The notes under the pieces were generated by a model. That model ran no database searches, was not told the origin of the DNA, and saw nothing but the letters and a program-made list of their open reading frames with translations. Position numbers and translations under genes: made by a program. DNA of 64,000 nt, taken from NCBI GenBank assembly GCA_017621205.1, contig JAGATQ010000051.1, positions 1 through 64,000 on the forward strand. Reading direction: 5' to 3'. Of this stretch, positions 11,040 to 28,952 are shown piece after piece. This DNA is from Lachnospira sp. (lineage in GTDB: Bacteria; Bacillota; Clostridia; Lachnospirales; Lachnospiraceae). Positions within the stretch are counted from its first letter, which is position 1, and each line of letters starts with the position of its first letter.

Positions 11040-11071
11040 TATATCAAATCGTCTACATACTAATTCAGAAT

Positions 11072-12940
11072 CTATTCCTTTTCTTTTATGTATCTACCAT
11101 CACAATAAACAAGTCCAAATATATTATATAGTTTTCTCGCCGCAACAAAAAAATCATCCTCAAAAACATTTATAAAGTAACTACCTGCTTTTTCTTTTAA
11201 TTCATCCATTCTTTCCCTGTATTGAGGATTATTCGCAAGATTCTCCATTCCAATGTCACAATTTACATATTCCTCTCTTCCATCCGCATATTGGTTATAA
11301 AACTCCGTTGAAGTGTAACATCCTCTACATTGAATACGCCGTATTATGCCGTCTCCCTCTTGTTCTATTAATTTATCTATAAATTTATCATTGTAAATAT
11401 CCAAATCTTGAGTTAATACATAATCAGACAATGCTTCTTCATAATTGCCACCTTCAATAATATAACGGATAATATAATACAATTTATTGCCTTGATAAAG
11501 TCTGGTCACCTTTTCTGACTTAATATCCTTACCTGATATCATCATAAGGATATGACCAATTTTTTCATGCCAGGTTCCCAAAGAATCGTCATAGCCTAAA
11601 TAATGATCTACTTTGCCATGATCACTCATAAAAATATTCACACTAAACTCACTATATGCTTTTTGATACCATTCCAATTGCTCATTTAAATATTTCTTAG
11701 CATCTTTATATTGTTCTATAGAACTCTCTTTATAGTTACCCGTTTCATGTTCTTCTATTGATAAAAAAGACCTGTTGTTATTTCCCCAAAATGGACGATG
11801 TGTCTCTACAGAATTATGAATACATACACACACAGGTTTATCCGACTGTATTAAAGCATCCCATGCCTCCCATTGCAATTGGGAACAAGATGTCTCATAA
11901 AAATTCCCCAAAAAAAGTGAATATCTTTTATACTCATCGGCTAATTTTTTAAGTGTACTGGTATGCCCTCCAATATAATGAAATGCATATCCATTATTCT
12001 CCAAATATTCAAGCAGCAAAACCTTATTATCGTATTTCTTCAAAGCATACAATTTATCATCAATAACCAATTGATTAGTCATAATCATTGCCATTGACAT
12101 ATTGGTAGCCCCCATAACACGATAAGCATTTTCAAAAAAAAGACTTGAAGCTTTTAGATTCTTAAGATAATTCAAGGTTTCAATTTCACCATAACATAAC
12201 GCATCAATCCAATTCCATACAATGTCTCTCTGCTTGCGTAATTTTAAAGAATGGTTAATCTTTTCAAGCAAACATTCAAATTCAGACCAAAACTCCTTGT
12301 ATAGATAGCTTTTTTCATAACCTTTTTTTGTATATTCATCAATATACTTTTTCGCATTTATAAAATCTTTTATTTCTAAATATGCTGCTATTATTTTGGA
12401 TAAAAGAATCTCAGCATCCAATTGTGTACTGCTTTGCATATAACATTGACGCAGAACATATAAATTCTCCCCATATACAGGACTGCTATAAAACGGTTGC
12501 AAACAGGCAATTCCCTTTTGTTGTAATATTTCATATAAGTCAATCACTTGAAAATCTTCATTTAAACAGTGTTTTAAAGTAAACAACTCTCTTGCCATTT
12601 CAACACGATGTTTAAATGATGAGATAATAAATATATCTATAGTTCTATTCGGAATATTTTTTATATCAATTACTTCTATCCCATGAAAACCTTCGATGGT
12701 TTTATTTCTATCTATCACATATTTAACTTTTTTACGGTTCGCTTCTGATAATACTTGTAATAATTTATCCGCATGCTCTCCCCCTCCCCGCAATGCAACA
12801 CATTTTTCTTCACCGAATGAGTCAAATATTTTATTAATCATTTCCGCTATATGATATTGAAAATGATATACTCCTGCATCAATTTTATACTTCAAAATTA
12901 ATACTTCTAATTCTTTATTAATATTTAAATTATCTTTCAT
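11072..12940 (-). CDS. Two-domain protein: N-terminal PglD_N-like Rossmann module plus alkaline-phosphatase-superfamily domain (sulfatase / LTA-synthase / phosphotransferase-like).
   Basis: N-terminus: VALRGGGEHADKLLQVL...VKYVIDRNK...IDIFIISS. Core: DIVWNWIDALCYGE (metal-binding), GGHTST (probable Thr nucleophile), FMSDHGKVDH (SDHG motif). Confidence 0.5.
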   Translation of the reverse strand: MKDNLNINKELEVLILKYKIDAGVYHFQYHIAEMINKIFDSFGEEKCVALRGGGEHADKLLQVLSEANRKKVKYVIDRNKTIEGFHGIEVIDIKNIPNRTIDIFIISSFKHRVEMARELFTLKHCLNEDFQVIDLYEILQQKGIACLQPFYSSPVYGENLYVLRQCYMQSSTQLDAEILLSKIIAAYLEIKDFINAKKYIDEYTKKGYEKSYLYKEFWSEFECLLEKINHSLKLRKQRDIVWNWIDALCYGEIETLNYLKNLKASSLFFENAYRVMGATNMSMAMIMTNQLVIDDKLYALKKYDNKVLLLEYLENNGYAFHYIGGHTSTLKKLADEYKRYSLFLGNFYETSCSQLQWEAWDALIQSDKPVCVCIHNSVETHRPFWGNNNRSFLSIEEHETGNYKESSIEQYKDAKKYLNEQLEWYQKAYSEFSVNIFMSDHGKVDHYLGYDDSLGTWHEKIGHILMMISGKDIKSEKVTRLYQGNKLYYIIRYIIEGGNYEEALSDYVLTQDLDIYNDKFIDKLIEQEGDGIIRRIQCRGCYTSTEFYNQYADGREEYVNCDIGMENLANNPQYRERMDELKEKAGSYFINVFEDDFFVAARKLYNIFGLVYCDGRYIKEKE

Positions 12941-13029
12941 CTAAGCCCCACCCCATTTTATATAGACAAATTCATCGAATATTTTTGCATTAATCAACGG
13001 ACACTAGTATCTGAGAAAAGCATTACTAT

Positions 13030-13644
13030 CTATAAACTTTTTAAATAATCAATCTCATGTGTTGGTAATTCATTTAATGGCAATGTTAAGGAATGATAGG
13101 TCATTTTTGCCGCTTGTTCCAGTACTTCCATACGATAAAAGGCTTCCAACAAATCCTTTCCTACAGTCAATACACCATGATTCTGTAATAAAACAATATT
13201 ATTGCCTATTACATTATTAGAGACCTCTTCTGCAAGCTCTTTTGTTCCCATCATCTTATATTTTGCTATTCCAATATTTTTAATGTTTTTACATGCTTCA
13301 GCAGTAAAATGCAAATTTATTGGCATTTTTGTAGCAGAAAAAAGGGTAGAGTAGTGAGGATGTGCATGAATAATTGCATGAATATCCGGCCTTTTTTGAT
13401 ATACTGCTATATGCATCATATATTCCATACTTGGCTTATGAATACCTTGAATAAAATTTGCCTCAATATCCAAAATTACAATATCTTCTTCTGTAAGATT
13501 GGCTTTATCGATACTGGAAGGAGTAATTAAAATTTCACTATCAGATATCTTATAACTAATATTTCCTCCCAGACTTGTTGTTAAATTTGAATTACACAAC
13601 CGTTTCATATAATTAATAATTTGTCTTTTCATTTTTTCCTCCAA
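13030..13644 (-). CDS. Class II aldolase/adducin family protein (fuculose-1-P aldolase / ribulose-5-P 4-epimerase-like).
   Basis: Metal-binding His cluster IIHAHPHYSTLFS and overall length and pattern match the class II aldolase fold. Confidence 0.7.
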   Translation of the reverse strand: MEEKMKRQIINYMKRLCNSNLTTSLGGNISYKISDSEILITPSSIDKANLTEEDIVILDIEANFIQGIHKPSMEYMMHIAVYQKRPDIHAIIHAHPHYSTLFSATKMPINLHFTAEACKNIKNIGIAKYKMMGTKELAEEVSNNVIGNNIVLLQNHGVLTVGKDLLEAFYRMEVLEQAAKMTYHSLTLPLNELPTHEIDYLKSL

Positions 13645-13669
13645 TCTATTTTTTATAGAAAAATACTCG

Positions 13670-14974
13670 TTATATTGCTTTGCTAAATTCTTCCTTCATA
13701 AAACGCTCTGCGGACATATACTGTAAAATCATATTTTCTCCTTGCGAATTATTTATTTGAAGCAGTTGATTAATCTCTTCTATAAGAATACATATTTCAT
13801 CAATACTATCTGCACAAAATCCTACGCATCCCATCCCCATTTCCGGATGTACTACTTCGCCAATGTTGACAGTAATCTTAACGTCAATATTTTTATTCAT
13901 CAATTCACTTTTGCCTAATATTTCTTTTACCACACCCTCTCGTCCACAACATAATTCATAGGAATAAATATATCTTTTTATTGCATGGCCTAAACCGCTC
14001 GGCAAATCTTTTTCCAAATGTTTTGTTCCCATTGCACACTCTACTGCCCATTTAACAATATCTATCTCTCCGACATGACTATATTCAATCGGGATAATAT
14101 CTGCTCCAAACCGATGTCCCATTTCAATCGCATAAAAATCTCCATTCTGGTTCATAATCACTTGAACCCAAGCAATGTTATCTTTACATCCCATTTCTTT
14201 AAGGGAACAAATAATTTTTTCATTCATTTGTTCCATAAAATCCTTGGCAAAAGGAGTTACATTACTGGCAACAAAGGAACTTTTCACTGCAAATTCTTTT
14301 GGTGCCATGAGAGAATGAAAAAATAAAAAGGCGACCTCTCCATCAGCCAGAGCATAATATGCTACAAATTCTTTCCCATTAATCTTTTCTTCTACGATAA
14401 TTTTAGGATTTTTTGATACTGACCGAGCTTTTCGATAGGCGTTTATTAACTCTTCTTTATTATTACAGAAAGAAATTCCTATACTGTCATTTTGGTCTAC
14501 CGGTTTAACCACAACTGGAAATTCTACTTGATCTAGTTCTTCCTCTGTTAATGCATCTGTTAAAAGGTAATCCCGCGGAACATTTAAACCTGTTTTTTTA
14601 CATACCTCTTTAAAATCTGCCTTGTTTTTTGAGTAATGAAAACTTTCCTTTGTACAATAACATGGCAGATGAAGTCTGTCGCACAACTCAATCATACTTT
14701 CTATGGCATAATCACTTGATGCAGTGATGATTGCATCAACTTCTTCTTCTCTACATTTCCTTTCTATTTTGTCATAGTCTGTATAACTATCCATCCAATA
14801 GGAATCTGCCATTTTTTTTGCTTCAGAATGTTCAGGAGCCACCCAATCTGTCACAATGGTATGTATCCCCTGACTCTGAGCATACTGTATAATTTCCCGA
14901 CTGCCAGGGCTTCCACCCAATAATAGCAATTTTTTTCCATTCATTTTTCTTTCCCTTTCATTTTCAGCCAGCAT
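13670..14974 (-). CDS. ATP-grasp domain ligase. Putative amino-acid or carboxylate ligase acting on a glycan precursor.
   Basis: N-terminal Rossmann (KKLLLLGGSPGSREIIQYA) followed by an ATP-grasp core (FPVVVKPVDQNDSIGISF...E.G). It sits inside the glycan locus. Confidence 0.65.
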   Translation of the reverse strand: MLAENERERKMNGKKLLLLGGSPGSREIIQYAQSQGIHTIVTDWVAPEHSEAKKMADSYWMDSYTDYDKIERKCREEEVDAIITASSDYAIESMIELCDRLHLPCYCTKESFHYSKNKADFKEVCKKTGLNVPRDYLLTDALTEEELDQVEFPVVVKPVDQNDSIGISFCNNKEELINAYRKARSVSKNPKIIVEEKINGKEFVAYYALADGEVAFLFFHSLMAPKEFAVKSSFVASNVTPFAKDFMEQMNEKIICSLKEMGCKDNIAWVQVIMNQNGDFYAIEMGHRFGADIIPIEYSHVGEIDIVKWAVECAMGTKHLEKDLPSGLGHAIKRYIYSYELCCGREGVVKEILGKSELMNKNIDVKITVNIGEVVHPEMGMGCVGFCADSIDEICILIEEINQLLQINNSQGENMILQYMSAERFMKEEFSKAI

Positions 14975-14999
14975 CCATGGGCAAATTAATTTATACGCC

Positions 15000-15425
15000 T
15001 TATACTACCTTTTCGATTCTAATTACCTGTGCTCCTTCTATAGAAAGCTTCACTGCTTCTTGGGCAAATTGCGGAAGGCCTTCTGTTATCATGCCAATTG
15101 CAGCACCATTCATAAAGCCATTCGGTCCAAAACACCACCCTCTATCATACCATAAGTCGAAGGTTACCGTCTGATCCTTCTGGGGCATTATAATAATTTC
15201 TCCAACCGACGGTAGGCAGGTCTCGTTTTCGTGCTCATATTTAGGGAAATTTGCAATGGGGAGCCAGATTTCGCCCCCTCCCCATTTGGCATGAAAGGCT
15301 TGTGTCTCAACTGGAAGAAGTGAAAGTAAACTTGCTGTAACAATTGGACATATGTCCTCTCTCAACGTGGCAATAGCACTTACACCAGACTTAATAAAAG
15401 TTATTTTTATTTTATTCATATACAA
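15000..15425 (-). CDS. Hypothetical protein.
   Basis: 141-aa ORF with no recognisable motif. It lies in an operon-like position between the ATP-grasp gene and the SDR gene. Confidence 0.4.
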   Translation of the reverse strand: MYMNKIKITFIKSGVSAIATLREDICPIVTASLLSLLPVETQAFHAKWGGGEIWLPIANFPKYEHENETCLPSVGEIIIMPQKDQTVTFDLWYDRGWCFGPNGFMNGAAIGMITEGLPQFAQEAVKLSIEGAQVIRIEKVV

Positions 15426-15452
15426 TTCCTCCTAATATCATATTAATATCTA

Positions 15453-16199
15453 CTAATTTTTCTCGAGCAATGTGTATCCACCATCTGCAACAATGATAGA
15501 ACCTGTAAAAATATTACTTGTAGCAAGCATGACATAAATTTCAGCAAGCTCTTCAGGCTTAATAAACCTTTCGATAGGAATAGAACCTAGCCATTTTTTT
15601 AGCAGATTACCTTGGGTTTTACTTAATGTTTCAGTCCAGACAAAACCAGGAGCGACCGCATTTACAAATATATCCGGAGCGTATTGCAAAGCAAGATTTT
15701 TCGTAAAACTATCTACCGCAGCTTTACCAGCACAATAGCCCATTAAATGTGTACGCCCAGCATAATTTATTCCCCTAATGGAACTCGTGTTAATAATATG
15801 TCCTTTCTTCATATATTGTTTTACTTTTTTGGAGCATAAAACAGTTGCAATAAGATTACTATTAATATCTCTAATCAATGTTGCTTCTGTAATTTCATCA
15901 AATGGTGTTGAATACGCATGTCCAACATTATTTACGAGAATATCTATAGAAGAATACTTCTCAGCGACCTTTTCAAACAGAAAATCAACACCTTGCTGGT
16001 TTGACAAGTCTGCTTGAATATAGATAGCCTTTCCCCCAGAATCAATAATTTCTTGTGCAGTAGCCTCTCCTTCTGTTCTTGAATTATGAGAAACTACAAT
16101 TACTTCAGCACCTTCAAATGCAAAGGTCTGTGCTATGGCCCTGCCAATTCCTGTTGAGGAACCGGTAATGAGTGCAACTTTGTCATATAATCTTTTCAT
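15453..16199 (-). CDS. Short-chain dehydrogenase/reductase (SDR) family oxidoreductase.
   Basis: TGSSTGIGRAIA NAD(P)-binding motif. A catalytic Y...K motif can be placed (YCAGK). Length 248 aa. Confidence 0.85.
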   Translation of the reverse strand: MKRLYDKVALITGSSTGIGRAIAQTFAFEGAEVIVVSHNSRTEGEATAQEIIDSGGKAIYIQADLSNQQGVDFLFEKVAEKYSSIDILVNNVGHAYSTPFDEITEATLIRDINSNLIATVLCSKKVKQYMKKGHIINTSSIRGINYAGRTHLMGYCAGKAAVDSFTKNLALQYAPDIFVNAVAPGFVWTETLSKTQGNLLKKWLGSIPIERFIKPEELAEIYVMLATSNIFTGSIIVADGGYTLLEKN

Positions 16200-16242
16200 A
16201 AATAATCTCCCCTATCACATGTTTAAATACAATAATAACCTG

Positions 16243-17370
16243 CTAATTGAGGAACTTCTCAATTGCTTGAATGATTGTCTCTTTATCCTCTTTGGAAAGC
16301 CCATAATACATTGGAAGACGGACTAATCGATTGCTTTCTGTTGTCGTATAATTATCTGTTCCACTGAAATATCCATACTTTATTCCGGCTTCTGAACTAT
16401 GTAATGGTACATAATGAAACACACAATATGCACCCTTTTCACGCATATAACGAATAAATCGCTCTCGCTGCTCCAAATCTTTTAGCTTAACATAAAACAT
16501 ATGGGCATTGTGCTTACAGTAATCTGGTACATATGCCAACTCTAAACAATGTTCTGCTTCTAAGTCCTTTAAATGTTCATAGTAAAATTGATAGCTTTTT
16601 AAACGGTCATCATTGATTTTTTCTGCACATTCCAGCTGCCCATATAATAGAGCTGCATTAATTTCACTTGGAAGAAACGAAGAACCTACGTCTACCCAGC
16701 TATATTTATCAACCTCACCGCGAAAAAACCTTGCACGGTTTGTTCCCTTTTCTCTAATGATTTCTGCCCGTTCCAAATATTGTTCATTATTAATGACTAA
16801 TGCTCCGCCTTCCCCCATTACATAGTTTTTGGTTTCATGAAAGCTGTAACAGCCTAAATCACCTATGGTACCCAATGACTGGTCTTTGTATGTAGCCATA
16901 ACGCCCTGTGCTGCATCCTCTATAATAGGAATGTTATATTTATGAGATATGTTATTTATTACGTCCATTTCACAAGCAACTCCGGCATAATGAACCACTA
17001 CAATAGCTTTTGTTTTTTCAGTAATTGCTGCTTCAATCAGTTTTTCATCTATGTTCATTGTATCCGGTCGAATATCTACGAACACCGTCTTTGCCCCGTA
17101 CATAGCAAAGGCATTGGCCGTGGATACAAAGGTATAAGAGGGCATAATCACTTCATCGCCGGGTTGGATATCCAATAAAATTGCTGCCATCTCTAATGCA
17201 GCAGTGCACGATGTTGTCAACAAAACCTTTTTTGCCGAGAATTTGTTCTCCATCCATTCACTGCATAATTTTGTGTATTTACCATCTCCTGCAATTTCGC
17301 TGGACTTTATAACATCCGCGACATATTCCTGTGCTTTTGGTATATATGGTGCTCTATTAAATGTTATCAT
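16243..17370 (-). CDS. DegT/DnrJ/EryC1/StrS-family PLP-dependent sugar aminotransferase (NDP-4-keto-6-deoxyhexose aminotransferase-like).
   Basis: Characteristic fold-type I sugar aminotransferase sequence. The active-site Lys region SFHETKNY is recognisable. Length 375 aa. Confidence 0.85.
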   Translation of the reverse strand: MITFNRAPYIPKAQEYVADVIKSSEIAGDGKYTKLCSEWMENKFSAKKVLLTTSCTAALEMAAILLDIQPGDEVIMPSYTFVSTANAFAMYGAKTVFVDIRPDTMNIDEKLIEAAITEKTKAIVVVHYAGVACEMDVINNISHKYNIPIIEDAAQGVMATYKDQSLGTIGDLGCYSFHETKNYVMGEGGALVINNEQYLERAEIIREKGTNRARFFRGEVDKYSWVDVGSSFLPSEINAALLYGQLECAEKINDDRLKSYQFYYEHLKDLEAEHCLELAYVPDYCKHNAHMFYVKLKDLEQRERFIRYMREKGAYCVFHYVPLHSSEAGIKYGYFSGTDNYTTTESNRLVRLPMYYGLSKEDKETIIQAIEKFLN

Positions 17371-17401
17371 TGTTATCTTTCCTTTCTGTATTGTTACCTA
17401 A

Positions 17402-18883
17402 TCATTCATCTTTATAATTGTTTTCAAAGAATGTTTCCCATTCGATAACGATATCATTATTTAATTTATTAGCATCATATAATTCTTTTTGAGGAAATGC
17501 AACGAACTCTTCTAATGTCTCATACTGTATGTCTTTAATGTTATTTATATCAACTAATATTTCTTGCATATAACTCATCACATCTATGTCTGCATATATT
17601 TTTATACCAGCAGCTTTTAATAATAGAATTGTAGATTCCGCAGCAAGCCTTTTTGCGGGAAACACTGCTACATCAATTGCTTGTAAAAAACAAAAATATT
17701 GTTCCTGCTTTATATAATTAAGAATTGGGATAAACTTATCACCAAATAAATTTTTTCCCATCTGTATAATATATTTTCGGTAATCATCAACCCCATACGA
17801 TAATGGACAATATATTTTAATATCTTCATCAGCATATCTCTGCAATAGACGCAAGCCTTCAATATGATTCACATACTCAAAAGCAGCATGTCCCAATAAA
17901 ATATGAGTGGAATCATGAGCAGGTGGTTTTTTTATCATTGATTTGGGTATATAAACATAATAAGCATTACTATCAATTTTTCCTTCTATACCATAATTTT
18001 CCTTTACTGCTTTATAGGTTCCCGCAGTTACAGAACAAATACCTACTTTTTTTATAATTTCACTTACTTCAAAAGAATCCTTATCAAAATACGCATCGCC
18101 GCCAAAGCATCCCCACACCATCTTCGATGCATAACACTGGGTCAAATCGTATACCAATTTTTTCGTTTCTTTTCCCCAAAAAGCGGAATGAAGAATGATT
18201 TTATAGGCATTTTTATAAATTTTTTTCATTATGTCGTAATAAAATCCCTGATTACAATCTAATTTTTTTGGAATCAACCTGTTTTTATCTGTAATAGCAT
18301 TATTAATACTTCCATGAACATCATCTAATATTAAGACATTATGATATTTTTTACACTTCTCCATTAAAAACGGAAGAATTCCGGCAAAATCATCTTTGAT
18401 TCTATAGGCTACTATAAGCAAATGTTCCTGAATAGGGAATTTCTCTTCCAACATCTGATAAAATGGTATAACAAATTTATCGTTAGAAAAAATGTGGATA
18501 TAGCGGTATTGCTTTTCTTTTTGGAGAACTCTACTATTGCTTTGAAATACCTTTTTTATATCAAAGAATTCCGGATAATAAAATAAACAATTATTAATCT
18601 CATTCTCCTCTAGAACTTTCATAATTTCCCGAAAATGAAATACAAGTACTGATAAAATAATACATTCAGAATAGTTTTTTATTGCTGTAAGAGAACGTAT
18701 CTGATAATTTCCAATTACCTGACCATTCTTCTCTTCATTACTATCTATAAAGAACACAACATTTTCCGCAATTCCTAACGCATCTATAGCTTTTTGGTTC
18801 CTAGTGGAAGCACCATACATAATAATGCGTTTGTTTTTAAGTGATTCAATTCCTACAGTTTTTCCAAAAGAATCTATCAACAT
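17402..18883 (-). CDS. N-terminal PglD_N-like Rossmann module fused to a WecF-like (GT56, 4-amino-4,6-dideoxyhexose transferase-like) domain.
   Basis: N-terminus: IIMYGASTRNQKAIDALG...VVFFIDSNEEKNGQVIG. The downstream blocks RYIHIFSNDKFVIPF, ILHSAFWG, VWGCFGGDAY, HILLGHAAFEYVNHIEGLRLL and IKIYCPLSYG align by eye with E. coli WecF blocks. Confidence 0.5.
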   Translation of the reverse strand: MLIDSFGKTVGIESLKNKRIIMYGASTRNQKAIDALGIAENVVFFIDSNEEKNGQVIGNYQIRSLTAIKNYSECIILSVLVFHFREIMKVLEENEINNCLFYYPEFFDIKKVFQSNSRVLQKEKQYRYIHIFSNDKFVIPFYQMLEEKFPIQEHLLIVAYRIKDDFAGILPFLMEKCKKYHNVLILDDVHGSINNAITDKNRLIPKKLDCNQGFYYDIMKKIYKNAYKIILHSAFWGKETKKLVYDLTQCYASKMVWGCFGGDAYFDKDSFEVSEIIKKVGICSVTAGTYKAVKENYGIEGKIDSNAYYVYIPKSMIKKPPAHDSTHILLGHAAFEYVNHIEGLRLLQRYADEDIKIYCPLSYGVDDYRKYIIQMGKNLFGDKFIPILNYIKQEQYFCFLQAIDVAVFPAKRLAAESTILLLKAAGIKIYADIDVMSYMQEILVDINNIKDIQYETLEEFVAFPQKELYDANKLNNDIVIEWETFFENNYKDE

Positions 18884-18926
18884 ACTCTTCCCCCCTTCAT
18901 TATAAACTTACTTACGTAAACTTCTG

Positions 18927-19622
18927 TCAGTGAAAGCTTTTCATAAAATAAGTAGTCTGTTCTCCCAAATTAAATAGCATATCTAAGATGGATACCCCAT
19001 GAACAAATTCACCATATAACTGGGGGTATTCACTATAACCAGAATAATCCATATATGTAAGTTTAATACCTGCATCAGCAAACATCTGAGGGTGAATATA
19101 GTCTTTCGCTGCCGGTCCTGAAATATATTCATATGCATCTGTTTGTTTGCAAATTCCAACAAGCTTTTCTGTCTTTCCATCATACAAAGTATAGTCAGAG
19201 GAGTATGTTATTTTTGTAGTAATATTAAGAATATCGCAAATTTCAGTTAAAAAAAGATAATTTATTCTGCTTAAATATTTTTCATCCTCACACCGTTTAT
19301 ATAATTCAAAAATTCTGGTCTTATATATATTAAAACATGTAGCTTTTGCATAATTCATCTGCAGGGCATTCCAATGTTCCATACACCATTTTGAAGATAC
19401 TATTTCTGTTTCTCTGATTTTCTGTTCAAAGCGTCCCTTTGTTACAACAGGAATCGTTAACCACATTATACCATGTTGTGTTTTAATGAGATTTCTGTTA
19501 CGCCAGTCTCTCTTTGTATATTGCATATCATCATATAGCACAAACTCGTCAACCATGTTAATCATGTCAAAATATCCCTTCCACGGAATATAATTCGACT
19601 GTAATATTGCGATTTTTTTCAT
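18927..19622 (-). CDS. WbqC-family protein (glycan-locus accessory enzyme of unknown activity).
   Basis: N-terminus MKKIAILQSNYIPWKGYFDMINMVDEFVLYDDMQYTKRDWRNRN is the hallmark WbqC family signature. Confidence 0.75.
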   Translation of the reverse strand: MKKIAILQSNYIPWKGYFDMINMVDEFVLYDDMQYTKRDWRNRNLIKTQHGIMWLTIPVVTKGRFEQKIRETEIVSSKWCMEHWNALQMNYAKATCFNIYKTRIFELYKRCEDEKYLSRINYLFLTEICDILNITTKITYSSDYTLYDGKTEKLVGICKQTDAYEYISGPAAKDYIHPQMFADAGIKLTYMDYSGYSEYPQLYGEFVHGVSILDMLFNLGEQTTYFMKSFH

Positions 19623-19635
19623 AACGTTTCCTCTC

Positions 19636-20970: not shown

Positions 20971-21196
20971 CTTAAAATTTACATTGTAGATAAAATGTAA
21001 TATTCATATATATTATTTAACTAGTCCATATATCGGCATTTTGCTATCTTATAATAACATATATCCATCAAAAATGACACCATTTTCCCATTATAACAAT
21101 TTTTTCCGTAAACATCATCTTCATGCCAAATTAAAAGTAAACTAATTCCAGTTTCTGACATTTTAAAATTGTAAAAAAATCTCTCTATTTATTCAT

Positions 21197-22516
21197 CTAT
21201 TCCAGCCAATGCTCCTTATAATCATAAATATTAATAATTCTGTCTTCCTCGCATAATTCTTCTGATTTAATTTGCTCAATAATTTGATTATTGTAACTAT
21301 TCGCTATTATGACAAGACACTCTGGATTCTCCCGAATGGCATCCGGAGTTTTTATTTCACGCTCCATAAATTTCTTGCCCTGCTTAGCAGGATTATTATC
21401 AACAAAAAACGTATCTTCATTGATTGGAATACCATACTGTTCAATAATTTTGTAAGCAGCCGAACCAGTTCCCCATATAACAATCTGTTTGCTCACTATC
21501 TCGCTATACTTCTTCAGTGAAAATGGTTTTCTGGCATATATAGAAGGCATATCGTGTTCCTGCAGCCATTGTGTAACTGTTTTTGCATACTGCATATATT
21601 GTTCTGATAATTTCGGTATATCGCCTGAAACCAATGCCAGATGATATTCTTTTATTGCCCCGATATATAATTTCTTAATAAGCGCAAAATACCTTTCTAC
21701 GTGTTCCCTGCCAAAAAATTCATAATAACCAACATAGGCAAATGCTGCCCGCATGCTCTTCTCATACATGGAATATGCAGATGCAAGACCATTACCATGA
21801 TATCGGTAATATCCGATACATTCATTTACAAAATATGCCTTCCCCCTCTTAAGATGAAGCAGATTTCTAAAAGTATCTGCACGGGAGGTCTGTTCAAATT
21901 GAGAGCCTACTAATTGCCTGTATTCCTCCGGAACCCCATTAGAAAAATAAACATTCCGATATATACTGGCTAACGTGTTAGAAAGAAGTTCCTTATTCAT
22001 TAAAAAATCATCATAGGTACTTGTAACGGATGTGATACCCGGACGGTGATATCTCAACTCGACGGTTCCGTCATTGAAAAGCTTATACTCGTTAGCACCA
22101 TATATTGTATAATCCTGATGTTCCTCTAAAAAATCTACACCCTTTTGAAGCCAATCCATATCTGACCAATAATCATCTGGATCTATCAAGCAAAAATATT
22201 CACTATCCATTCTTTCTAAGGCTTTTAAAACATTGCGAAATAACTTACAATTTTCTTTAGCATATATCGCAAGAAATTTTTCAGGGTATTTTTTTTCATA
22301 TTCTGCAATTATTTCCACCGAGTTGTCTCTGGAACAATCATCTGTAACAATTATCTGATAATCAAAATTGACCTTCTGTCCCAGTATAGAATCAAATGTC
22401 TGACTAATATATTGACCATTATTATATGATGGTATGATAATCGTCATTTTATATTTATGTGTACTCATACCTCTACCTCTTTTCTTAACTATTATATTAC
22501 TTAAAAAGTTATCCAC
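21197..22516 (-). CDS. Glycosyltransferase family 2, with C-terminal PglD_N-like module.
   Basis: MTIIIPSYNNGQYISQTFDSILGQ...VTDDCSRDNS...IDPDD (GT2 DxD). C-terminus: IVIWGTGSAAYKIIEQYG...FFVDNNPAKQGKKF. Confidence 0.8.
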   Translation of the reverse strand: MDNFLSNIIVKKRGRGMSTHKYKMTIIIPSYNNGQYISQTFDSILGQKVNFDYQIIVTDDCSRDNSVEIIAEYEKKYPEKFLAIYAKENCKLFRNVLKALERMDSEYFCLIDPDDYWSDMDWLQKGVDFLEEHQDYTIYGANEYKLFNDGTVELRYHRPGITSVTSTYDDFLMNKELLSNTLASIYRNVYFSNGVPEEYRQLVGSQFEQTSRADTFRNLLHLKRGKAYFVNECIGYYRYHGNGLASAYSMYEKSMRAAFAYVGYYEFFGREHVERYFALIKKLYIGAIKEYHLALVSGDIPKLSEQYMQYAKTVTQWLQEHDMPSIYARKPFSLKKYSEIVSKQIVIWGTGSAAYKIIEQYGIPINEDTFFVDNNPAKQGKKFMEREIKTPDAIRENPECLVIIANSYNNQIIEQIKSEELCEEDRIINIYDYKEHWLE

Positions 22517-22534
22517 ACATAAACAAGCGTACTT

Positions 22535-23620
22535 TTATTCTGTATAATACTCCATCACCTGTTCTAAAATAATATCCCATGTATATTTTTGACTGGCATA
22601 GTTCCTCATATCATCAACATAAAAGTTATGCTTTTTAAGCTGATTATAAAAATCAATAATCTCCTTCATATTAATGGGCTGACTATCATTAGACACCTTT
22701 AAAACATAGCTTTCTTCTCCACTAAAACCGCCATCATCATATCCATAAACAAACGGAATACCTCTTGCACAATAATCCCCTGATTTAATCGGAGTGGCAT
22801 ATGTCATATTTTTTTTGTATAATCCCAACACCCCAATAGCGATATCTGCCTCATCATACAATCGGTTTAGTTTTTCCCCCTCTATACGTCCCAATAATTC
22901 AACATGCTCCTGCAATTGATATTTCTCTGTCAACTGTAAATACTTATCCGTTTCTGTCCCTTCCCCAACTAAGCGTAAAATTATGTTTACCGTTCCATTC
23001 TTTGCGTAATAATCTGCCATCCCCTCAATTACTCTCTCATATCCATGCCAATAACTCATGGCGGCAACCGCAATTAATACAATAGTTCCATCTGGTTTTC
23101 TAATATTATGTACCGGATATTCCTCTAAATCAACACCATTTATTAATGGAATACATGGAATGCCAAAAACAGTATCACAATTCAAATATGTTGTACATTG
23201 TTCCAGATAAGCAGCCAGCTGCTCTCTATAATACTGATCCTCGATTCTTACTCTATTATTAGATATCTCAGCATCATAGGGAATTGTCGGAAATTCCAAA
23301 ACGCTTTTCACATTTTTTCCTTTTAGTTCTTTTATAAACTCAATAAACCATTTATCCGACATATTATAACGGATGTATGTCCTCTGTATTCCATACTTTT
23401 TTATCCATTCCAAAATCCATTGATTACATTCCTGCTTTGTAATTGCCAATTCCTTTTCCAATATTTTCCCATCCGACATCAGATATACCATTTGTCCACT
23501 ATGCGAAGTATAATAGACAGGAGAAAACTTTTTTTCAAACACCTTTATCTGGGCAAACACCTTTTTTTTAATTCCTATATATCCCTTGGAAAACAAATCC
23601 ACCAGTATAATATATATCAT
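22535..23620 (-). CDS. Putative glycosyltransferase (GT-B / GT1-GT4-like).
   Basis: The C-terminal region (VGEGTE...LGRIEGEKLNRLYDEADIAIGV...GIPFV) resembles a GT-B sugar-donor-binding domain. Assignment is weak. Confidence 0.4.
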   Translation of the reverse strand: MIYIILVDLFSKGYIGIKKKVFAQIKVFEKKFSPVYYTSHSGQMVYLMSDGKILEKELAITKQECNQWILEWIKKYGIQRTYIRYNMSDKWFIEFIKELKGKNVKSVLEFPTIPYDAEISNNRVRIEDQYYREQLAAYLEQCTTYLNCDTVFGIPCIPLINGVDLEEYPVHNIRKPDGTIVLIAVAAMSYWHGYERVIEGMADYYAKNGTVNIILRLVGEGTETDKYLQLTEKYQLQEHVELLGRIEGEKLNRLYDEADIAIGVLGLYKKNMTYATPIKSGDYCARGIPFVYGYDDGGFSGEESYVLKVSNDSQPINMKEIIDFYNQLKKHNFYVDDMRNYASQKYTWDIILEQVMEYYTE

Positions 23621-24036
23621 TGCTCCACCATTCCTTCCAAAAATTCTCCCAAAAACAAAAGCTGTTTTTCATCAATCCGTTTTGATAAATCGTCCTTTAT
23701 CCTTTGATAATATTTTACCGGAGTAATAATTATTTTTTCACCAGCGTACTCCTCCATTAAATCATCAAAGGAAATTGCCCGGATTCCCTTGACATTCACA
23801 GATAGTCCGCCATTTTTATCTACTACCGCTTTCACATCCACCATAGTATGAATCGCATTATATAGCTGCACTCCCAGATAGCCACCACCATAGATATAGA
23901 GAGATTGAATATGAAACAATTCTAACCGTTCCTTCATCCACTCCGTCTCTAACATCCTTCCCATCATATTATAACAGGAGGACTCAATCCTATAATCCTT
24001 TACATATAAATCAAAAAGCTCTTCTTCAAAATTCAT
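23617..24036 (-). CDS. Stand-alone PglD_N-like small Rossmann module protein.
   Basis: The 139-aa protein consists essentially of the module LYIYGGGYLGVQLYNAI...VKAVVDKNGGLSVNVKGIRAI...KIIITP. The same module is fused to seven other enzymes in the locus. Confidence 0.4.
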   Translation of the reverse strand: MNFEEELFDLYVKDYRIESSCYNMMGRMLETEWMKERLELFHIQSLYIYGGGYLGVQLYNAIHTMVDVKAVVDKNGGLSVNVKGIRAISFDDLMEEYAGEKIIITPVKYYQRIKDDLSKRIDEKQLLFLGEFLEGMVEQ

Positions 24037-24074
24037 TTATAATCACCTCATCACGAAACATCTGGAGGGTTTTG

Positions 24075-25391
24075 TTACCATTTCACCTTTCCCATTGTTC
24101 CTTCTTTATAATCTTTAAATGCCTTATCAATTGCTGCCTTATGCTTATCCACATCGATATCTACTTCCACATTTTTTTGAATCTTTGTTACACTATCCTC
24201 ACATTCACGTGCAAAGACCGGATCCAGCGATTGATATTTATCAGATAAGTATAAATTATTACGACAAATATAATAATATCGGTCTGAAGAATATTTGTTA
24301 ATGACCATTTTCTTTCCATCTACAAATCTGTATTCCACATTCTCATCCTGTATATTATGCTTTAAAAAAGCATTATTTATCTTAATAACACTGTAACCAT
24401 GTAACCGCATTCTAACACAATATTCATAATCTACCGGGTCAATAAACAATGCTTCATCATAGCCACCAACCTCTTTTAAAACTATGAGATTATGCATGGC
24501 ACCACTTTGATATACCTTATCAAAATAGGTATAGCAGCAGTCAAAAACAATATGTTCCTCCTGTGTAATATTAGGAGCAATGATTCCGACTCTTTCATCA
24601 CACATCTTACTTTGTGCAAATGCAATCATCCGCTCCATCATGCAATTTCCTGCTTTACTATCCTGATCAAAAGTGAATAACCAATCTATTCCCTGAGAAA
24701 GGGCTTTTTTAGCTACCGTATTAATAGGCTCCGATAATCCTGCATTGTCCTGATTAGCAATATAACATACATGCTGTAGCCCTTTTAACTTTGCAATCAA
24801 TTTCTCATTCGGTGTTCTGGAATTATCATAAATGTACAAAATATCGACATCATTGGCGTATGTAATAATATTGTCGTATACAGCTAGATTCGGATTATAA
24901 AGTATGGTTACCGCCGCTACGTTTACGTTCCGCACTGCCTTTAAATCTATCTGTTCTTTTTCCAATACCCTTTTCTCATCCAGATTGCCTAGTATAATAT
25001 TATCAATATTAATTACATCCACCTGTATCCCTGCATGAGTCAATGCTTCCTTTATATCCATTTCGTAAATGCTGTTCATTACGAATACAACATCTGCATT
25101 TACATTATGATAATCAACAATTTCATGTCCCGTTTGGAGTTTTGTTCCATATTTTTTTTCATTTTTATCAAATACATAATGGATTCTTTCTCTCCTCGGG
25201 TCATATACATTTAAAAAAGCGATTCCTCTTTCGCCTGCACCCCAGACAGCAATTGTCTTATTTGACTTAATCAATGTCATTATAATTTTTTCAATAGTCT
25301 TTTTTTTCCCCTCGAAATAGTGTTCATATATATTTCCTGAACGCAATTCATTCATCCCCTTCCTCATTAAGTCAAATTCAAAGGTGTCCAA
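24075..25391 (-). CDS. N-terminal PglD_N-like module plus glycosyltransferase family 2 domain.
   Basis: N-terminus: IAVWGAGERGIAFLN...YVFDKNEKKYGTKL. Core: LFTFDQDS, DPVDYEYCVRMRLHG (GT2). Confidence 0.7.
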   Translation of the reverse strand: MDTFEFDLMRKGMNELRSGNIYEHYFEGKKKTIEKIIMTLIKSNKTIAVWGAGERGIAFLNVYDPRRERIHYVFDKNEKKYGTKLQTGHEIVDYHNVNADVVFVMNSIYEMDIKEALTHAGIQVDVINIDNIILGNLDEKRVLEKEQIDLKAVRNVNVAAVTILYNPNLAVYDNIITYANDVDILYIYDNSRTPNEKLIAKLKGLQHVCYIANQDNAGLSEPINTVAKKALSQGIDWLFTFDQDSKAGNCMMERMIAFAQSKMCDERVGIIAPNITQEEHIVFDCCYTYFDKVYQSGAMHNLIVLKEVGGYDEALFIDPVDYEYCVRMRLHGYSVIKINNAFLKHNIQDENVEYRFVDGKKMVINKYSSDRYYYICRNNLYLSDKYQSLDPVFARECEDSVTKIQKNVEVDIDVDKHKAAIDKAFKDYKEGTMGKVKW

Positions 25392-25392
25392 A

Positions 25393-26547
25393 TCAAAAGA
25401 TATACTCTATATGTAATTCTTCAAGCTGCCTGCAAACTTCTTCACGGAATTGTACAGATATACCAAGTAATACACATACATTCTGTTCTTGTGAGATTTC
25501 CCCCAATTCATATATTTTATGCTCATGACAATATTCTTTATCCTTATGCCCATTTGACACTATATGCCCCTCATATGTTACCTCAAGCAGTTCTAAAAAA
25601 CGGACTATTCTGTCAGATGCTTTACCAGTTCCATAAATGTACAATCTCTTTTTAGCCAAGACTGCTTTCATCAGTTCTTCATAATTGCTAAAGCTCTCAA
25701 ACATTTCTTTTTTATGTTGTATGTGCAAATCAGCTAAATGCTTTCCTTCAAATTTTTCCCTTTCTCTTTTTAAAGTAACATAAAACTCTATACTATTTTT
25801 TTCAGTAGTTATCTCATCAATTTTAAAATCTATATATCCCAAAATATTCAATTGATAAATCAATATTTCAAATGATTTGGGGGTAAATACACCAGAATGC
25901 ATATCACAATATTTTTCATCGCTGTATTCTTTGATGCTTGAATCCATATCATCTAACCAATCATTATTTTCATCCCATCTAAACGTCATATCTTTATCAA
26001 AATATATCCCGCTATTAGGCACATAGGTACCATTTTCTTTTACACGAACCTGATTCAACAGGACGTCAATCATTGTCCCAATGGAATGATTATTGGCCTT
26101 TGTTCTATATACATGGTTATCAATCACTGTTCTAATTGATACCTCTTCTCTAAAATAATCAAACTCATATCTCTTATCAGGAATAACTAATTTAATTTTC
26201 CCATCATCCTTTAATAATGTTGAACAATCATTTATAAACTCGATTATGTCAACAACATGCTCAATCAAGTGCGAAGCTGCAATAACATCATAGTAACCTT
26301 TTTTCCCTATTGAAGATGCGTAATGCCTCGCAACTACAAAATCAACCTCTTCAATTTTATCAGCGTCATATCCTATGCTATCCTTATACTTTTGCCTCAA
26401 TTCTTCACCGGACAAGTAGTCCGCTATTTCTACATTATATCCATCGGATTTAGGATACATGGGAAAACACAACGGACCTATCTCTAATATTAAGCTATCC
26501 TTATCAACCCCTCTACATGCAAATTCTTTTTTTATTTTGTTCATCAT
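25393..26547 (-). CDS. Methyltransferase-like domain protein with C-terminal PglD_N-like module.
   Basis: N-terminus: LEIGPL...DVIAASHLIEHVVD...DDGKIKLVIPD, class-I MTase-like. C-terminus: LYIYGTGKASDRIVRFLE... Confidence 0.45.
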   Translation of the reverse strand: MMNKIKKEFACRGVDKDSLILEIGPLCFPMYPKSDGYNVEIADYLSGEELRQKYKDSIGYDADKIEEVDFVVARHYASSIGKKGYYDVIAASHLIEHVVDIIEFINDCSTLLKDDGKIKLVIPDKRYEFDYFREEVSIRTVIDNHVYRTKANNHSIGTMIDVLLNQVRVKENGTYVPNSGIYFDKDMTFRWDENNDWLDDMDSSIKEYSDEKYCDMHSGVFTPKSFEILIYQLNILGYIDFKIDEITTEKNSIEFYVTLKREREKFEGKHLADLHIQHKKEMFESFSNYEELMKAVLAKKRLYIYGTGKASDRIVRFLELLEVTYEGHIVSNGHKDKEYCHEHKIYELGEISQEQNVCVLLGISVQFREEVCRQLEELHIEYIF

Positions 26548-26612
26548 AACAATCCTTCCTGTTTACAAACAAATATCCTCTGTCATCATCTCAATGCACT
26601 CTACAATATCAA

Positions 26613-28952
26613 TCACACTGAATATATCCTCGGCTCTCTCTCCAAACCCTCATAACACTCCAATATAAAATCAGCTATCTCACTGATAGAAAACAGCGAC
26701 GTCACAATATAGGTATCATTGCCCCTTCTCATTGCCTCATAAAGCCCCATCACCTCAACACCTTCTTTCAAGGTGCCCCAAATGGATTCCTTCCTGTCAA
26801 TAAAACAGGTCACACCAATATGGTACATCTGGCAAAGGAAATAAAACTGTCTTCCGTTCTCCCCTGCACCATATAGGGCAATCTCTTTGATGCCGTCTGC
26901 CTGCACCTGCTCCACGACCTCCTGCATGGATTTGATAATTTCATTCTGGGAACCATTTTTCAGTGCTCTTCTGACATAGTAAAATTCGTCCAGCAGCGTT
27001 ACGGTTCCCTTGGGCCATGTAATATTGCTGTTTTGATAAGTGTAGCTTACATTGCACTTGTCGATGAAATCTACACCCTTTTCTCTTGCCAGAGCAAGGT
27101 GCTCCTCAGTAATAATCCCCTTTTTATAATTCGTTCCAAAATTGGTATCTGCCTCAAAATCTGCCAAAAGCTCTGCCTCTTCTTTTCGTGGCATATCAAT
27201 CAACCGATGGAGTATCATAAACGTTTCCCTTCGGTTTGCAAGACAGGCATCTGCAATATCCGGCTTTCTTCTTCGAAATGCAAACCAATATTTTTGGAAA
27301 GTAAATGCGCCTTCAAAAGCTATATTTGTGAAATGTTCATTATCTACCCCTGCTGACTGCAATGGAACAATGACATCCTTCTGTCTTTCATAGCCTATGG
27401 TGCTGCCCTCCGTCACTGAAATGAGTTTTTCCAAGACATCCGTCGTCCGGTGAATGGTAGGAATCAAATCCCGGTTTTCTGCAAAGGTGCCAAACATTCC
27501 TTCAAAATCCAGACCATTATAAAGCCGTTCTTCCGTTACCCCTACTGCAAGAAAATGCTTCATTCTATGTGGTACCTGTTCTATCGTAAGGCACTGCTCC
27601 ATCCACATTTGTATCCTGCCAAAAAAGCCAATATCTATCGTAGCGATACCATCCATATCTCCTATTTCCTGCTTTAAATAATCCACCAGCTTTCGTCGTT
27701 CCTGCTCTATATATGTTTCAATCTGTCTGACATTCTTTTCCTCAAGGAAACGATTAATAATATACTCCTTTAATGTCCCCTTCCCATATTCCATTCTATG
27801 GGTTTCTTTATGCTTTACATCAAGATATTCCTTTATTTCAGAAAAATCACTCTCAGCAAGTCCCATTAACTGAAGCGATTCCCGAATCGTTAAATTTCTG
27901 GCTCCAATCATGTTCTCAATTTCTTCCCGGGTTACCATAGTAATAGATGGAATATAGGTAACCTTTCGGGATACATAAATCGGATGAACTGTAAGCTCAA
28001 GACCCAGCTCCTTCGCTTCCCTCTTTAACAGCTCTCCAAGCAGGTATCCTTCTCTCATCAACGGATATATTCTCGTAATATGAAGCTTTTGCAGACGCTT
28101 TACAACCCACGATATGTATAAGGAAAGCACCGGACCTGTCACCGCAGCGCCCAACTCATAGGCTGTTTTTTCCCTGCCTTCATAAGAAGAAGCTGCCATA
28201 CACATTTTACGCAGAGACAGTATTCCCGGCTGTGGTACATTATGTCTGATTTTTTCATAGTCAAAAATACTGTATAGCCTGTCTGGTATCGCATCGTAAT
28301 GAAATGCCTGCATCCCACGCTTTAACGGTTGCTCATAATCTGCATTTTTATTATCACCAATATGTAGCATATCCTTAGGCAAAATATCCGGATATTTTTG
28401 AAAGAGAATATCAAATAATTCTCCGGTTTGCTTATTGCACTTATATTCATTAGAGACAATGATATCATCAAACATTGCCGTCTCTATCTGGTTAGCAGTC
28501 AAGATATCCCGAATGGTATCACTGCTAAGATACATATCGGATACGAGAACAAGGATACATCCTTTGCTTTTCATTTTACGAAGCCAATCCAGAATAACAA
28601 AATTAGGATAGCAGTATTTCTTTTCCAACTCTATTTCTAATTCCTTTAAAGCAGTAAGGTCCTTCGCAATATAATCGGGATACATCTGATAGATGTCCTC
28701 TAAGGTGACCTCCCGGCAAACTGCATTCGTGCGGGCTCTTCTTTCCATCTCTGCCCGAAATTTCATATACTCCTTCGGATACATACTTGTCTTAGCAATA
28801 TCTCTTTGTTCTGCTTCCTTCCATACCAACTCAAACAAGTCGACCGGTTTTGCTACCGCCCGAAGCAATAACGTATCAAATATATCTACACTGATTAACT
28901 GATAGTCCTCTACTCCTGGTAATGTCACTGTCTCTCCTCCTACCCATCCCAC
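26613..28952 (-). CDS. Large HAD-superfamily (haloacid dehalogenase-like) domain protein with C-terminal PglD_N-like module. Possibly a phosphatase or phosphotransferase of the glycan pathway.
   Basis: HAD motif I, ISVDIFDTLLLRA (DxDT), and motif IV-like HIGDNKNAD. C-terminus: IALYGAGENGRQFYFLCQ...FIDRKESIWG. The middle 400 aa has no recognisable motifs. Confidence 0.5.
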   Translation of the reverse strand: MGWVGGETVTLPGVEDYQLISVDIFDTLLLRAVAKPVDLFELVWKEAEQRDIAKTSMYPKEYMKFRAEMERRARTNAVCREVTLEDIYQMYPDYIAKDLTALKELEIELEKKYCYPNFVILDWLRKMKSKGCILVLVSDMYLSSDTIRDILTANQIETAMFDDIIVSNEYKCNKQTGELFDILFQKYPDILPKDMLHIGDNKNADYEQPLKRGMQAFHYDAIPDRLYSIFDYEKIRHNVPQPGILSLRKMCMAASSYEGREKTAYELGAAVTGPVLSLYISWVVKRLQKLHITRIYPLMREGYLLGELLKREAKELGLELTVHPIYVSRKVTYIPSITMVTREEIENMIGARNLTIRESLQLMGLAESDFSEIKEYLDVKHKETHRMEYGKGTLKEYIINRFLEEKNVRQIETYIEQERRKLVDYLKQEIGDMDGIATIDIGFFGRIQMWMEQCLTIEQVPHRMKHFLAVGVTEERLYNGLDFEGMFGTFAENRDLIPTIHRTTDVLEKLISVTEGSTIGYERQKDVIVPLQSAGVDNEHFTNIAFEGAFTFQKYWFAFRRRKPDIADACLANRRETFMILHRLIDMPRKEEAELLADFEADTNFGTNYKKGIITEEHLALAREKGVDFIDKCNVSYTYQNSNITWPKGTVTLLDEFYYVRRALKNGSQNEIIKSMQEVVEQVQADGIKEIALYGAGENGRQFYFLCQMYHIGVTCFIDRKESIWGTLKEGVEVMGLYEAMRRGNDTYIVTSLFSISEIADFILECYEGLEREPRIYSV

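Follow-up and report, generated by a model that had tools for sequence, protein, structure and literature searches.

Minimal Rossmann domains can serve as nucleotide sensors and dimerisation units, as in the NAD(H)-binding regulator Rex and in KTN/RCK domains. Among the enzymes that build surface glycans, a small, cytoplasmic Rossmann-like domain known as the 'DUF' (PF13727; structure 3NKL) occurs at the N-terminus of the large monotopic phosphoglycosyl transferases WbaP/WcaJ/CpsE and in WbpM/PglF-type dehydratases. In WbaP, this domain supplies most of the dimer contacts and is stabilised by UMP, UDP and UTP, UMP inhibits the enzyme with a half-maximal inhibitory concentration of 4.1 uM, and Dodge et al., noting that the domain is also present in PglF-like dehydratases, proposed feedback control of glycan flux (PMC10942596). 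The N-terminal domain of the PglD-type enzyme Pcryo_0637 (7L7Y) has been described as a platform to which the UDP binds, with Ser11/Cys13 and Asp40/Asp41 contacting ribose hydroxyls, uracil and phosphates (PMC8040287). Here we analyse a 64,000-nucleotide stretch of Lachnospira sp. DNA (contig JAGATQ010000051.1, positions 1 to 64,000; hereafter the window), in which a Rossmann-type module of the same superfamily is found on eight minus-strand open reading frames (ORFs) between positions 11072 and 28952, seven of them fused to different enzymes and one consisting of the module as a 139-residue protein.

A preliminary description of the window had proposed that one module of about 85 residues recurs on these eight proteins. 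Because the copies share only 11–26% pairwise identity (mean 18%), we ran a formal homology test in which a hidden Markov model (HMM) built from seven copies was searched against the six-frame translation of the window (445 ORF pieces of at least 50 residues). The omitted copy was found again each time, with E values between 4e-9 and 4e-6, while the top unrelated ORF reached only 0.009–0.5. As each omitted copy was recovered, the eight segments are homologous. These E values, with no other match in the window, led us to reject chance similarity between the modules, and a duplication of recent date inside the locus was rejected because of the low identity. The same searches found no ninth copy in the 64-kb window; all eight lie within 18 kb. 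The recurring unit thus stands as first described, but its length does not: by hmmsearch envelopes, which we used as module boundaries, it spans 87–99 residues, plus a helix ahead of it. Each ORF has a single copy, four at the N-terminus, three at the C-terminus and one stand-alone.

In order along the stretch, all on the minus strand, copy 1 occupies residues 44–140 (12521–12811; RGGGEHA ... VIDRN; leave-one-out E 2.8e-7) of sulf622 (11072–12940), ahead of a sulfatase/alkaline-phosphatase-like domain whose Pfam Sulfatase match (E 1.7e-4) lies below the curated cut-off. Copy 2 (residues 15–108, 18560–18841; YGASTRN ... FIDSNEEKNG; E 4.1e-9) precedes the WecF/GT56-like glycosyltransferase domain of wecF493 (17402–18883; NF002756 E 7.5e-40, Glyco_transf_56 28.6 bits), and copy 3 (residues 29–127, 20590–20886; E 3.6e-6) the NKWYS/sulfotransferase-like domain of nkwys444 (19636–20970; NKWYS E 2.5e-25, Sulfotransfer_3 weak). 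Copy 4 is C-terminal (residues 341–439, 21200–21496; WGTGSAA ... FVDNNPAKQG; E 5.3e-8) in the GT2 glycosyltransferase gt2_439 (21197–22516; Glycos_transf_2 E 3.4e-25). The stand-alone protein solo139 (23617–24036) has two N-terminal helices and then copy 5 (residues 42–138, 23623–23913; YIYGGGYLG ... VVDKN; E 7.6e-8). Copy 6 (residues 43–138, 24978–25265; WGAGERG ... VFDKNEKKYG; E 1.4e-8) is N-terminal to the GT2 rhamnosyltransferase-like domain of gt2_438 (24075–25391; TIGR01556 E 1.2e-25). The last two are C-terminal: copy 7 (residues 298–384, 25396–25656; YGTGKAS, with Val in place of the Asp after strand 2; E 3.3e-7) follows the class I methyltransferase-like domain of mt384 (25393–26547; Methyltransf_23 31 bits), and copy 8 (residues 688–779, 26616–26891; YGAGENG ... 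FIDRK; E 6.3e-7) ends had779 (26613–28952), which combines a HAD phosphatase (NCBIfam HAD subfamily) with a phosphoribosyl pyrophosphate (PRPP)-type ribose-5-phosphate transferase. The positions of the eight ORFs agree with those given earlier, and the earlier partner labels are broadly right by Pfam and NCBIfam, except that 'HAD-like' is more precisely a homologue of the CrpP-CriT part of the polymerase Bcs3, as described below, and that 'sulfatase-like' refers to a weak Pfam match. Searches of Protein Data Bank (PDB) sequences with sulf622, nkwys444 and mt384 returned nothing at E <= 0.01.

The module is a self-contained, minimal Rossmann-type domain, a b-a-b fold of about 100 residues. The AlphaFold model of solo139, built with 58 homologues, has a mean predicted local distance difference score (pLDDT) of 93.3 and a predicted template modelling score (pTM) of 0.87. 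It places two N-terminal helices ahead of strand 1 (residues 45–49), a helix, strand 2 (67–72), a hairpin loop, a helix, strand 3 (101–104), a helix and strand 4 (126–128), so that the modelled module topology is b1-aA-b2-hairpin-aB-b3-aC-b4. A profile of the eight copies searched against all PDB sequences found 3NKL at E 1.7e-6, as well as 4RV9 (the C-domain of a sugar 3-C-methyltransferase), Rex, 2G6T and VioB; with a 48-sequence module profile, the values were 2.2e-13 for 3NKL, 1.3e-8 for Rex, 7.7e-6 for 2G6T, 2.1e-5 for VioB and 4e-4 for 4RV9. The closest solved relative by sequence profile, 3NKL, is the isolated N-terminal domain of a WbpM-like UDP-D-quinovosamine 4-dehydrogenase. The first suggestion of a fold akin to the PglD/NeuD N-terminal domain and to WcaJ-type transferases was thus right in kind, and the nearest relatives are the WbpM/WbaP-type domain and C2185-like_N. 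We place the module in one superfamily with CoA_binding_3 (WbaP/WcaJ, WbpM/PglF), C2185-like_N, PglD_N and the C-domain of sugar C-methyltransferases.

Existing Pfam and NCBIfam models describe the module poorly and miss or barely detect most copies. Methyltransf_14 (PF08484) scores marginally above its 23.5-bit cut-off on three of the eight isolated modules (24.0, 24.2 and 29.7 bits) and below it on the other five; the wecF493 module gives 24.0 bits and the gt2_438 module 28.8–29.7 bits, and the match covers only about positions 35–146 of the 160-position model. The remaining copies show sub-threshold matches to CoA_binding, PglD_N, NeuD or Rex. PF13727 matched neither the full proteins (E <= 0.1) nor the isolated modules (E <= 10), the top PglD_N (PF17836) score among the eight copies was 14.5 bits against a cut-off of 23.4, and none of the eight proteins showed a hexapeptide-repeat domain in a Pfam scan. 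For PF22674, precomputed weak matches exist on orthologues of gt2_439, wecF493 and gt2_438, and strong ones on some module-bearing proteins outside the window; they were not reproduced on solo139 homologues, nor on the eight copies at E <= 10.

What the copies have in common is concentrated in a few positions. We aligned 252 module instances, from the eight window copies and the 150 best database proteins, to the HMM and obtained the consensus [IVL]x[IL][YFW]G[ATG]Gxx[GAS] ... [FIV][VIC]Dx[ND]xxKxGxxxGxx[IV]xxP ... [IVL][IVL] ... EIxxxL, which bears out the motif pattern of the preliminary description. In the loop that follows strand 1, the first Gly is kept in 249 of 252 instances and the second in 207 of 252, and the Asp just past strand 2 in 228 of 251; the [ND]xxKxGxxxG hairpin, the [IV]xxP segment and the E-I pair of the third helix are also conserved. 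In the window copies, the corresponding counts are 8/8, 6/8 and 7/8, the missing Asp being that of mt384. The key residues in solo139 numbering are G50, G52, G55 and D73; within the solo139 family, Y47, Y49, G50, G51 and D73 are invariant and T105-P106, past strand 3, nearly so. A Gly-rich loop and an Asp after strand 2 are the classical nucleotide-binding positions of Rossmann folds. Every characterised relative holds a nucleotide-type ligand with them: PglD/VioB-type enzymes a UDP- or dTDP-sugar, Rex NAD(H) and the WbaP DUF uridine nucleotides. From the alignment, the conserved residues appear to be the ligand-binding positions of the relatives and form no obvious protein interface. The residue numbering of the UDP contacts in Pcryo_0637 also fits the first loop of the module and the position just past strand 2, in a comparison of numbering only.

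Similar to the WbaP/WbpM-type DUF, the module is a small Rossmann-like fold in surface-glycan enzymes, and the two share the motif YGAGxxG ... (F/I)(I/V)DD/N..K.G....G..(I/V). However, the DUF follows a four-helix membrane bundle in two enzyme types only, whereas the proteins here have no predicted membrane segment, and the module is found alone or as the N- or C-terminal part of enzymes from at least 15 families. The swapped beta-hairpin by which WbaP dimerises is not seen in the solo139 model. The PglD_N/NeuD N-domain (PF17836; 7L7Y, 7TXP) belongs to the same fold class, with its Gly loop and Asp in matching positions that bind the UDP or dTDP of the substrate, but it is always N-terminal to a left-handed beta-helix acyltransferase and part of its active site, while the module proteins lack such a catalytic domain. 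C2185-like_N (PF22674; Clostridium acetobutylicum CAC2185, 2G6T), alike by the profile match given above, is a structural-genomics entry with unknown function. For Methyltransf_14, the C-domain of sugar C-methyltransferases (4RV9), mt384 itself gives no match, and the architecture of zinc ribbon, methyltransferase and C-domain is absent here. The C-terminal NADH-sensing domain of Rex and the KTN/RCK domains sit on a DNA-binding domain or on ion channels, not on glycan enzymes, and nothing seen here points to NAD(H), the known Rex ligand, as the ligand of the module. The SH3b domain of Bcs3 is likewise an accessory, non-catalytic domain C-terminal to CriT, the position of the had779 module; as SH3b is a beta-barrel of unrelated fold, this likeness is positional only.

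The fusion of the module to unrelated enzymes, pointed out in the preliminary description, is strongly supported and extends past this locus. Searched exhaustively against 1.84 billion representative proteins, the profile matched 12,273 clusters (at 50% identity) with E <= 1e-3, among them the WbpM/WcaJ and C-methyltransferase groups already known; with E <= 1e-10, it matched 274. In the best 150 database proteins, the module is N-terminal, C-terminal or internal, and 16 instances are in proteins shorter than 200 residues. Two to four copies are present in 88 of 158 proteins (the 150 best and the eight from the window). Many database proteins, among them P0087, P0089, P0133 and P0143, carry two to four modules in tandem or at both the N- and C-terminus, with four in P0087, and some of about 200 residues consist of two modules and nothing else. 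A Pfam census of 148 of the best 150 proteins found, as glycosyltransferase partners, GT2, GT1/GT4, GT8, GT9, GT-D and RgpF; other partners were LicD and TagF-type phosphotransferases, FkbM and class I methyltransferases, radical SAM/SPASM, cytidylyltransferase, NKWYS, sulfatase-like, HAD, GDSL and DUF5672 domains. Methyltransf_14 matched 24 of the 148. Almost all of these partners are surface-glycan or teichoic-acid enzymes. The solo139 family itself comprises conserved proteins of about 135–145 residues, and a module-profile search found 80 homologue clusters, nearly all of them solo139 orthologues.

The layout of the locus recurs as well. The identical locus is present on many metagenome contigs. 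When one genome of each species was scanned for the solo139 family, 16 related loci came up, in Lachnospiraceae, Clostridiales, Eubacterium and Clostridium metagenome-assembled genomes and isolates, for example Lachnospiraceae bacterium A4. In 15 of these, a six-frame search with the module HMM found 3–9 copies per locus of up to 20 kb; the sixteenth (L015) begins at a contig end, and the solo copy alone is visible. In all 16, the solo-module gene is followed directly downstream by an overlapping orthologue of GT1_361 (22535–23620, minus strand), a GT1/GT4-type glycosyltransferase (Pfam Glycos_transf_1) with no module of its own. The orthologues match at E <= 1e-88 in the 15 loci with a complete gene, and that of L007 stops 82 residues in. 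In the window, the start of GT1_361 overlaps the stop of solo139 by 4 nucleotides, ATGA, at the junction ...CAATGATA.... The other module-bearing enzymes vary between species: the 58 module ORFs of the related loci include GT1, GT2, FkbM, GT-D, LicD, TOD1/MUCI70, RgpF, DUF5672, DUF1919, NKWYS, sulfatase-like and Polysacc_synt_2 partners. A protein in which solo139 and the GT1 are fused was found neither among the 150 module proteins nor in the best 120 clusters of GT1_361 orthologues, all of 315–373 residues, so that reading the gene pair as a split fusion is without a Rosetta-stone case.

Between orthologues, the module is kept about as well as the catalytic part: identities for module and catalytic part are 54 and 45% in gt2_438, 40 and 37% in nkwys444, and 50 and 60% in gt2_439. 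The module is therefore under purifying selection and no decaying remnant. A role as membrane anchor was rejected, since the eight module proteins and GT1_361 contain no typical hydrophobic segment of the membrane-helix type; the sole hydrophobic stretch above the usual threshold in these nine proteins is strand 3 of the module itself. On identical metagenome contigs, five genes were called with later starts, giving 426 instead of 438 residues for gt2_438, 423 instead of 439 for gt2_439, 433 instead of 444 for nkwys444, 771 instead of 779 for had779 and 438 instead of 458 for the ORF at 30777–32153. The longer ORFs of the window begin with TTG or GTG, 8–20 codons ahead of these calls, and the true starts are uncertain; the modules are unaffected.

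The modules lie in a run of minus-strand genes at 9.8–33 kb, whose predicted product helps to interpret their distribution. Residues 18–446 of had779 align with residues 384–825 of Bcs3 (8A0C), the capsule polymerase of Haemophilus influenzae b (Hib), at E 5e-21, and also with the ribofuranosyl transferase 7SHG (E 1.7e-15). Bcs3 consists of the TagF-like CroT (residues 1–373), the HAD phosphatase CrpP (374–591), the PRPP-dependent ribose-5-phosphate transferase CriT (592–1036) and the polymer-binding SH3b domain (1037–1115), which is essential for activity; according to the same paper, the polymerases of 'complex teichoic acids' have not yet been identified (PMC10299916). On these alignments, had779 is a CrpP-CriT homologue in which the Rossmann module sits where Bcs3 has SH3b. 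Adjoining had779 are genes for a TarJ-like (28940–29965) and a TarI-like (29969–30688) CDP-ribitol enzyme, followed by a TagF/TarL-like phosphotransferase (30777–32153). Together with had779, this set looks like a split, Gram-positive counterpart of Bcs3, and the probable product of the locus is a ribosyl-ribitol-phosphate backbone of the Hib type, decorated afterwards. Methyl, sulfate and amino-sugar groups would be the expected decorations. The module is present on enzymes that we predict to be acceptor-directed transferases and tailoring enzymes and on none of those classed as precursor enzymes, namely the TarI- and TarJ-like proteins, a DegT aminotransferase, WbqC, SDR, ATP-grasp, class II aldolase and DUF3830 proteins and an APS-kinase/methyltransferase fusion. 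The polymerase, that is the TagF/TarL-like phosphotransferase, also lacks it. For GT1_361, the module is predicted to be supplied as a separate protein, solo139.

Several other features of the region stand out. At 9831–11039, an unusual fusion protein is encoded, with an APS kinase domain (E 4e-31) at its N-terminus and a class I (TehB-like) methyltransferase domain at its C-terminus; taken with the genes of NKWYS/sulfotransferase-like and sulfatase-like type, it is a hint that the glycan may be sulfated. A sub-cluster at 13030–17370 and 18927–19622 (aldolase II, ATP-grasp, DUF3830, SDR, DegT aminotransferase, WbqC) suggests that an N-acylated amino sugar is made; of its members, only DegT- and WbqC-like genes were seen within +/-10 kb of the related loci. 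The G+C content is 30–35% over about 10000–26000, 40–46% in the flanks and 0.39–0.44 at the TarI/TarJ/TagF/had779 end. By its look, the tailoring part is an island that varies or was acquired, in agreement with the different genes that related species have there. A 341-residue ORF (32214–33239), which lies at the upstream end of the locus, has no Pfam match at E <= 1e-3, and on a metagenome contig (L002) the same place holds a 337-residue gene, likewise without Pfam matches.

What, then, might the module do? Our favoured explanation, which we hold tentatively and judge to be a little short of probable, is that a nucleotide-type ligand binds to it and that it works as a unit of regulation and/or oligomerisation. 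This reading draws on the strict conservation of the same positions as in the ligand-binding relatives and accords with what is reported of the WbaP DUF, a dimer interface that binds uridine nucleotides, and the autonomy of the domain is argued by the stand-alone proteins, the two-module proteins of about 200 residues and the proteins with two to four copies. A nucleoside mono- or diphosphate, a nucleotide sugar or a similar molecule would be held through its phosphate and ribose by the GxGxx[GA] loop and the Asp that follows strand 2. The module would act in cis on the enzyme to which it is fused, with solo139 acting in trans on its GT1 partner, and the enzymes of one pathway would in this way receive the same input, or pair by means of a domain that they all have. 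In Lachnospiraceae/Clostridiales surface-glycan loci, shuffling has brought it to many soluble transferases and tailoring enzymes. Several observations weigh against this. The relatives bind diverse ligands (UMP/UDP, UDP- or dTDP-sugars, NAD(H), CoA), the Gly loop is degraded in two of the eight copies (GASTRN in wecF493, GIASLA in nkwys444), and the mt384 module is without the Asp. Moreover, several partners neither take a nucleotide donor nor yield a nucleotide product: the donor of the CriT-like enzyme is PRPP, and no nucleotide substrate is apparent for the sulfatase-like one. It is therefore not evident which one nucleotide signal they could all share. The beta-hairpin swap through which the WbaP DUF dimerises is not evident in the solo139 model, and the predicted restriction of the module to acceptor-directed rather than precursor enzymes fits docking or acceptor tethering equally well.

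Docking would mean that the modules pair mutually or with a common partner and so assemble a membrane-proximal multi-enzyme machine, a non-covalent version of Bcs3, to part of which had779 is homologous. The Rex and KTN domains are dimerisation surfaces, and the many proteins with modules in tandem or at both ends, the module-only proteins, the constancy of the overlapping solo-module/GT1 pair in 16 of 16 loci while the other fused enzymes change, and the predicted marking of acceptor-directed enzymes with precursor enzymes left bare are all what such an arrangement might produce; the WbaP DUF is a dimerisation surface too (PMC10942596). Indeed, the stand-alone and tandem copies and the overlapping gene pair fit an adaptor or oligomerisation role. 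Yet the modules of the locus are so divergent, with conservation at ligand-site residues and no recognisable surface patch, and the TagF/TarL-like polymerase is left without one; these points, and the lack of a fused solo139 and GT1 among the best 120 orthologue clusters, make docking unlikely in our view. Alternatively, the module could bind the acceptor common to these enzymes, either the ribose/ribitol-phosphate polymer itself or an undecaprenyl-pyrophosphate-linked intermediate, and so keep each tailoring enzyme on its substrate, as SH3b does in Bcs3. It follows the CriT-like domain of had779, in the position of the essential polymer-binding SH3b, its Gly-rich phosphate loop and diol-binding Asp could in principle recognise ribose- or ribitol-phosphate units, and its acceptor-directed partners are of unrelated chemistry, including TagF, LicD and RgpF elsewhere. 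However, we know of no relative of the fold that binds a polymer or a polyprenyl carrier, and most of the module-rich related loci show no TarI, TarJ or TagF within +/-10 kb, so that a role specific to ribitol phosphate cannot be general; we regard this tethering as improbable. Merging the two ideas gives a pathway-wide assembly or tethering tag, acting through module pairing (possibly controlled by nucleotides) or through a ribose/ribitol-phosphate or lipid-linked acceptor. We give it a small chance, and the enzymes gathered in this way, with the same modest likelihood, would be the CrpP-CriT-like protein, the glycosyltransferases, the methyltransferase and the sulfotransferase- and sulfatase-like proteins.

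A further alternative is that the module belongs to the active site of each enzyme, where it would grip the nucleotide of a donor or nucleotide-linked substrate, as in PglD, NeuD and VioB; the domain does bind UDP in PglD-type enzymes (PMC8040287). Against such a donor-holding role, copies are found at both kinds of terminus, by themselves and in tandem, and PRPP is what the CriT-like partner uses. Partners of the GT-A, GT-B and class I methyltransferase folds possess complete donor sites of their own. In addition, the closest pair in the window joins the C-terminal module of gt2_439 to the N-terminal module of wecF493 (phmmer E 5e-10), a GT2 and a GT56-like enzyme, which argues against co-adaptation with one active site. 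Donor holding is the least compatible of these three rivals with the stand-alone and tandem copies, the variable termini and the complete donor sites of the partners, and we consider it quite doubtful. Finally, the weak Pfam matches could be taken to mean a chance resemblance or a generic dehydrogenase-type NAD(P) domain, which the preliminary description had named as grounds for giving up its claim. We reject this, and its likelihood is close to nil: apart from the leave-one-out result, no oxidoreductase catalytic domain is attached, the partners being GT2, GT56-like, NKWYS, methyltransferase, sulfatase-like and CrpP-CriT-like domains or none at all; the module is conserved in orthologues as well as the catalytic domains are; the multi-copy layout returns in 16 loci; and ordinary GT2, methyltransferase and sulfatase-like enzymes are normally without the module.

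The superfamily is already known, and one branch of it has a partly characterised function. In the literature that we searched on the Pfam names, 3NKL, 2G6T and 2PY6, no study of function turned up, nor any account of the multi-fusion pattern; this subfamily, its promiscuity over soluble glycan transferases, and the recurrent solo-module/GT1 pair within a locus of 3–9 copies are undescribed there. A dedicated model would improve the annotation of thousands of glycan enzymes, judging by the 12,273 clusters with the known groups included.

Little is understood of the coordination among the many soluble enzymes that make and decorate one bacterial surface polymer. Here, one domain of a ligand-binding type marks eight enzymes of one pathway, nine with the GT1 partner of solo139, and the design recurs in at least 16 related loci of gut Clostridia with changing sets of enzymes. 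Because solo139 is small and confidently modelled, it makes the coordination of a whole glycan pathway testable. If the module senses a nucleotide or mediates assembly, the regulatory idea put forward for the WbaP/PglF DUF would extend from the first committed step to whole pathways. If instead it proves to be an assembly or tethering tag, it would represent a general organising principle for the synthesis of complex wall glycans in Lachnospiraceae.

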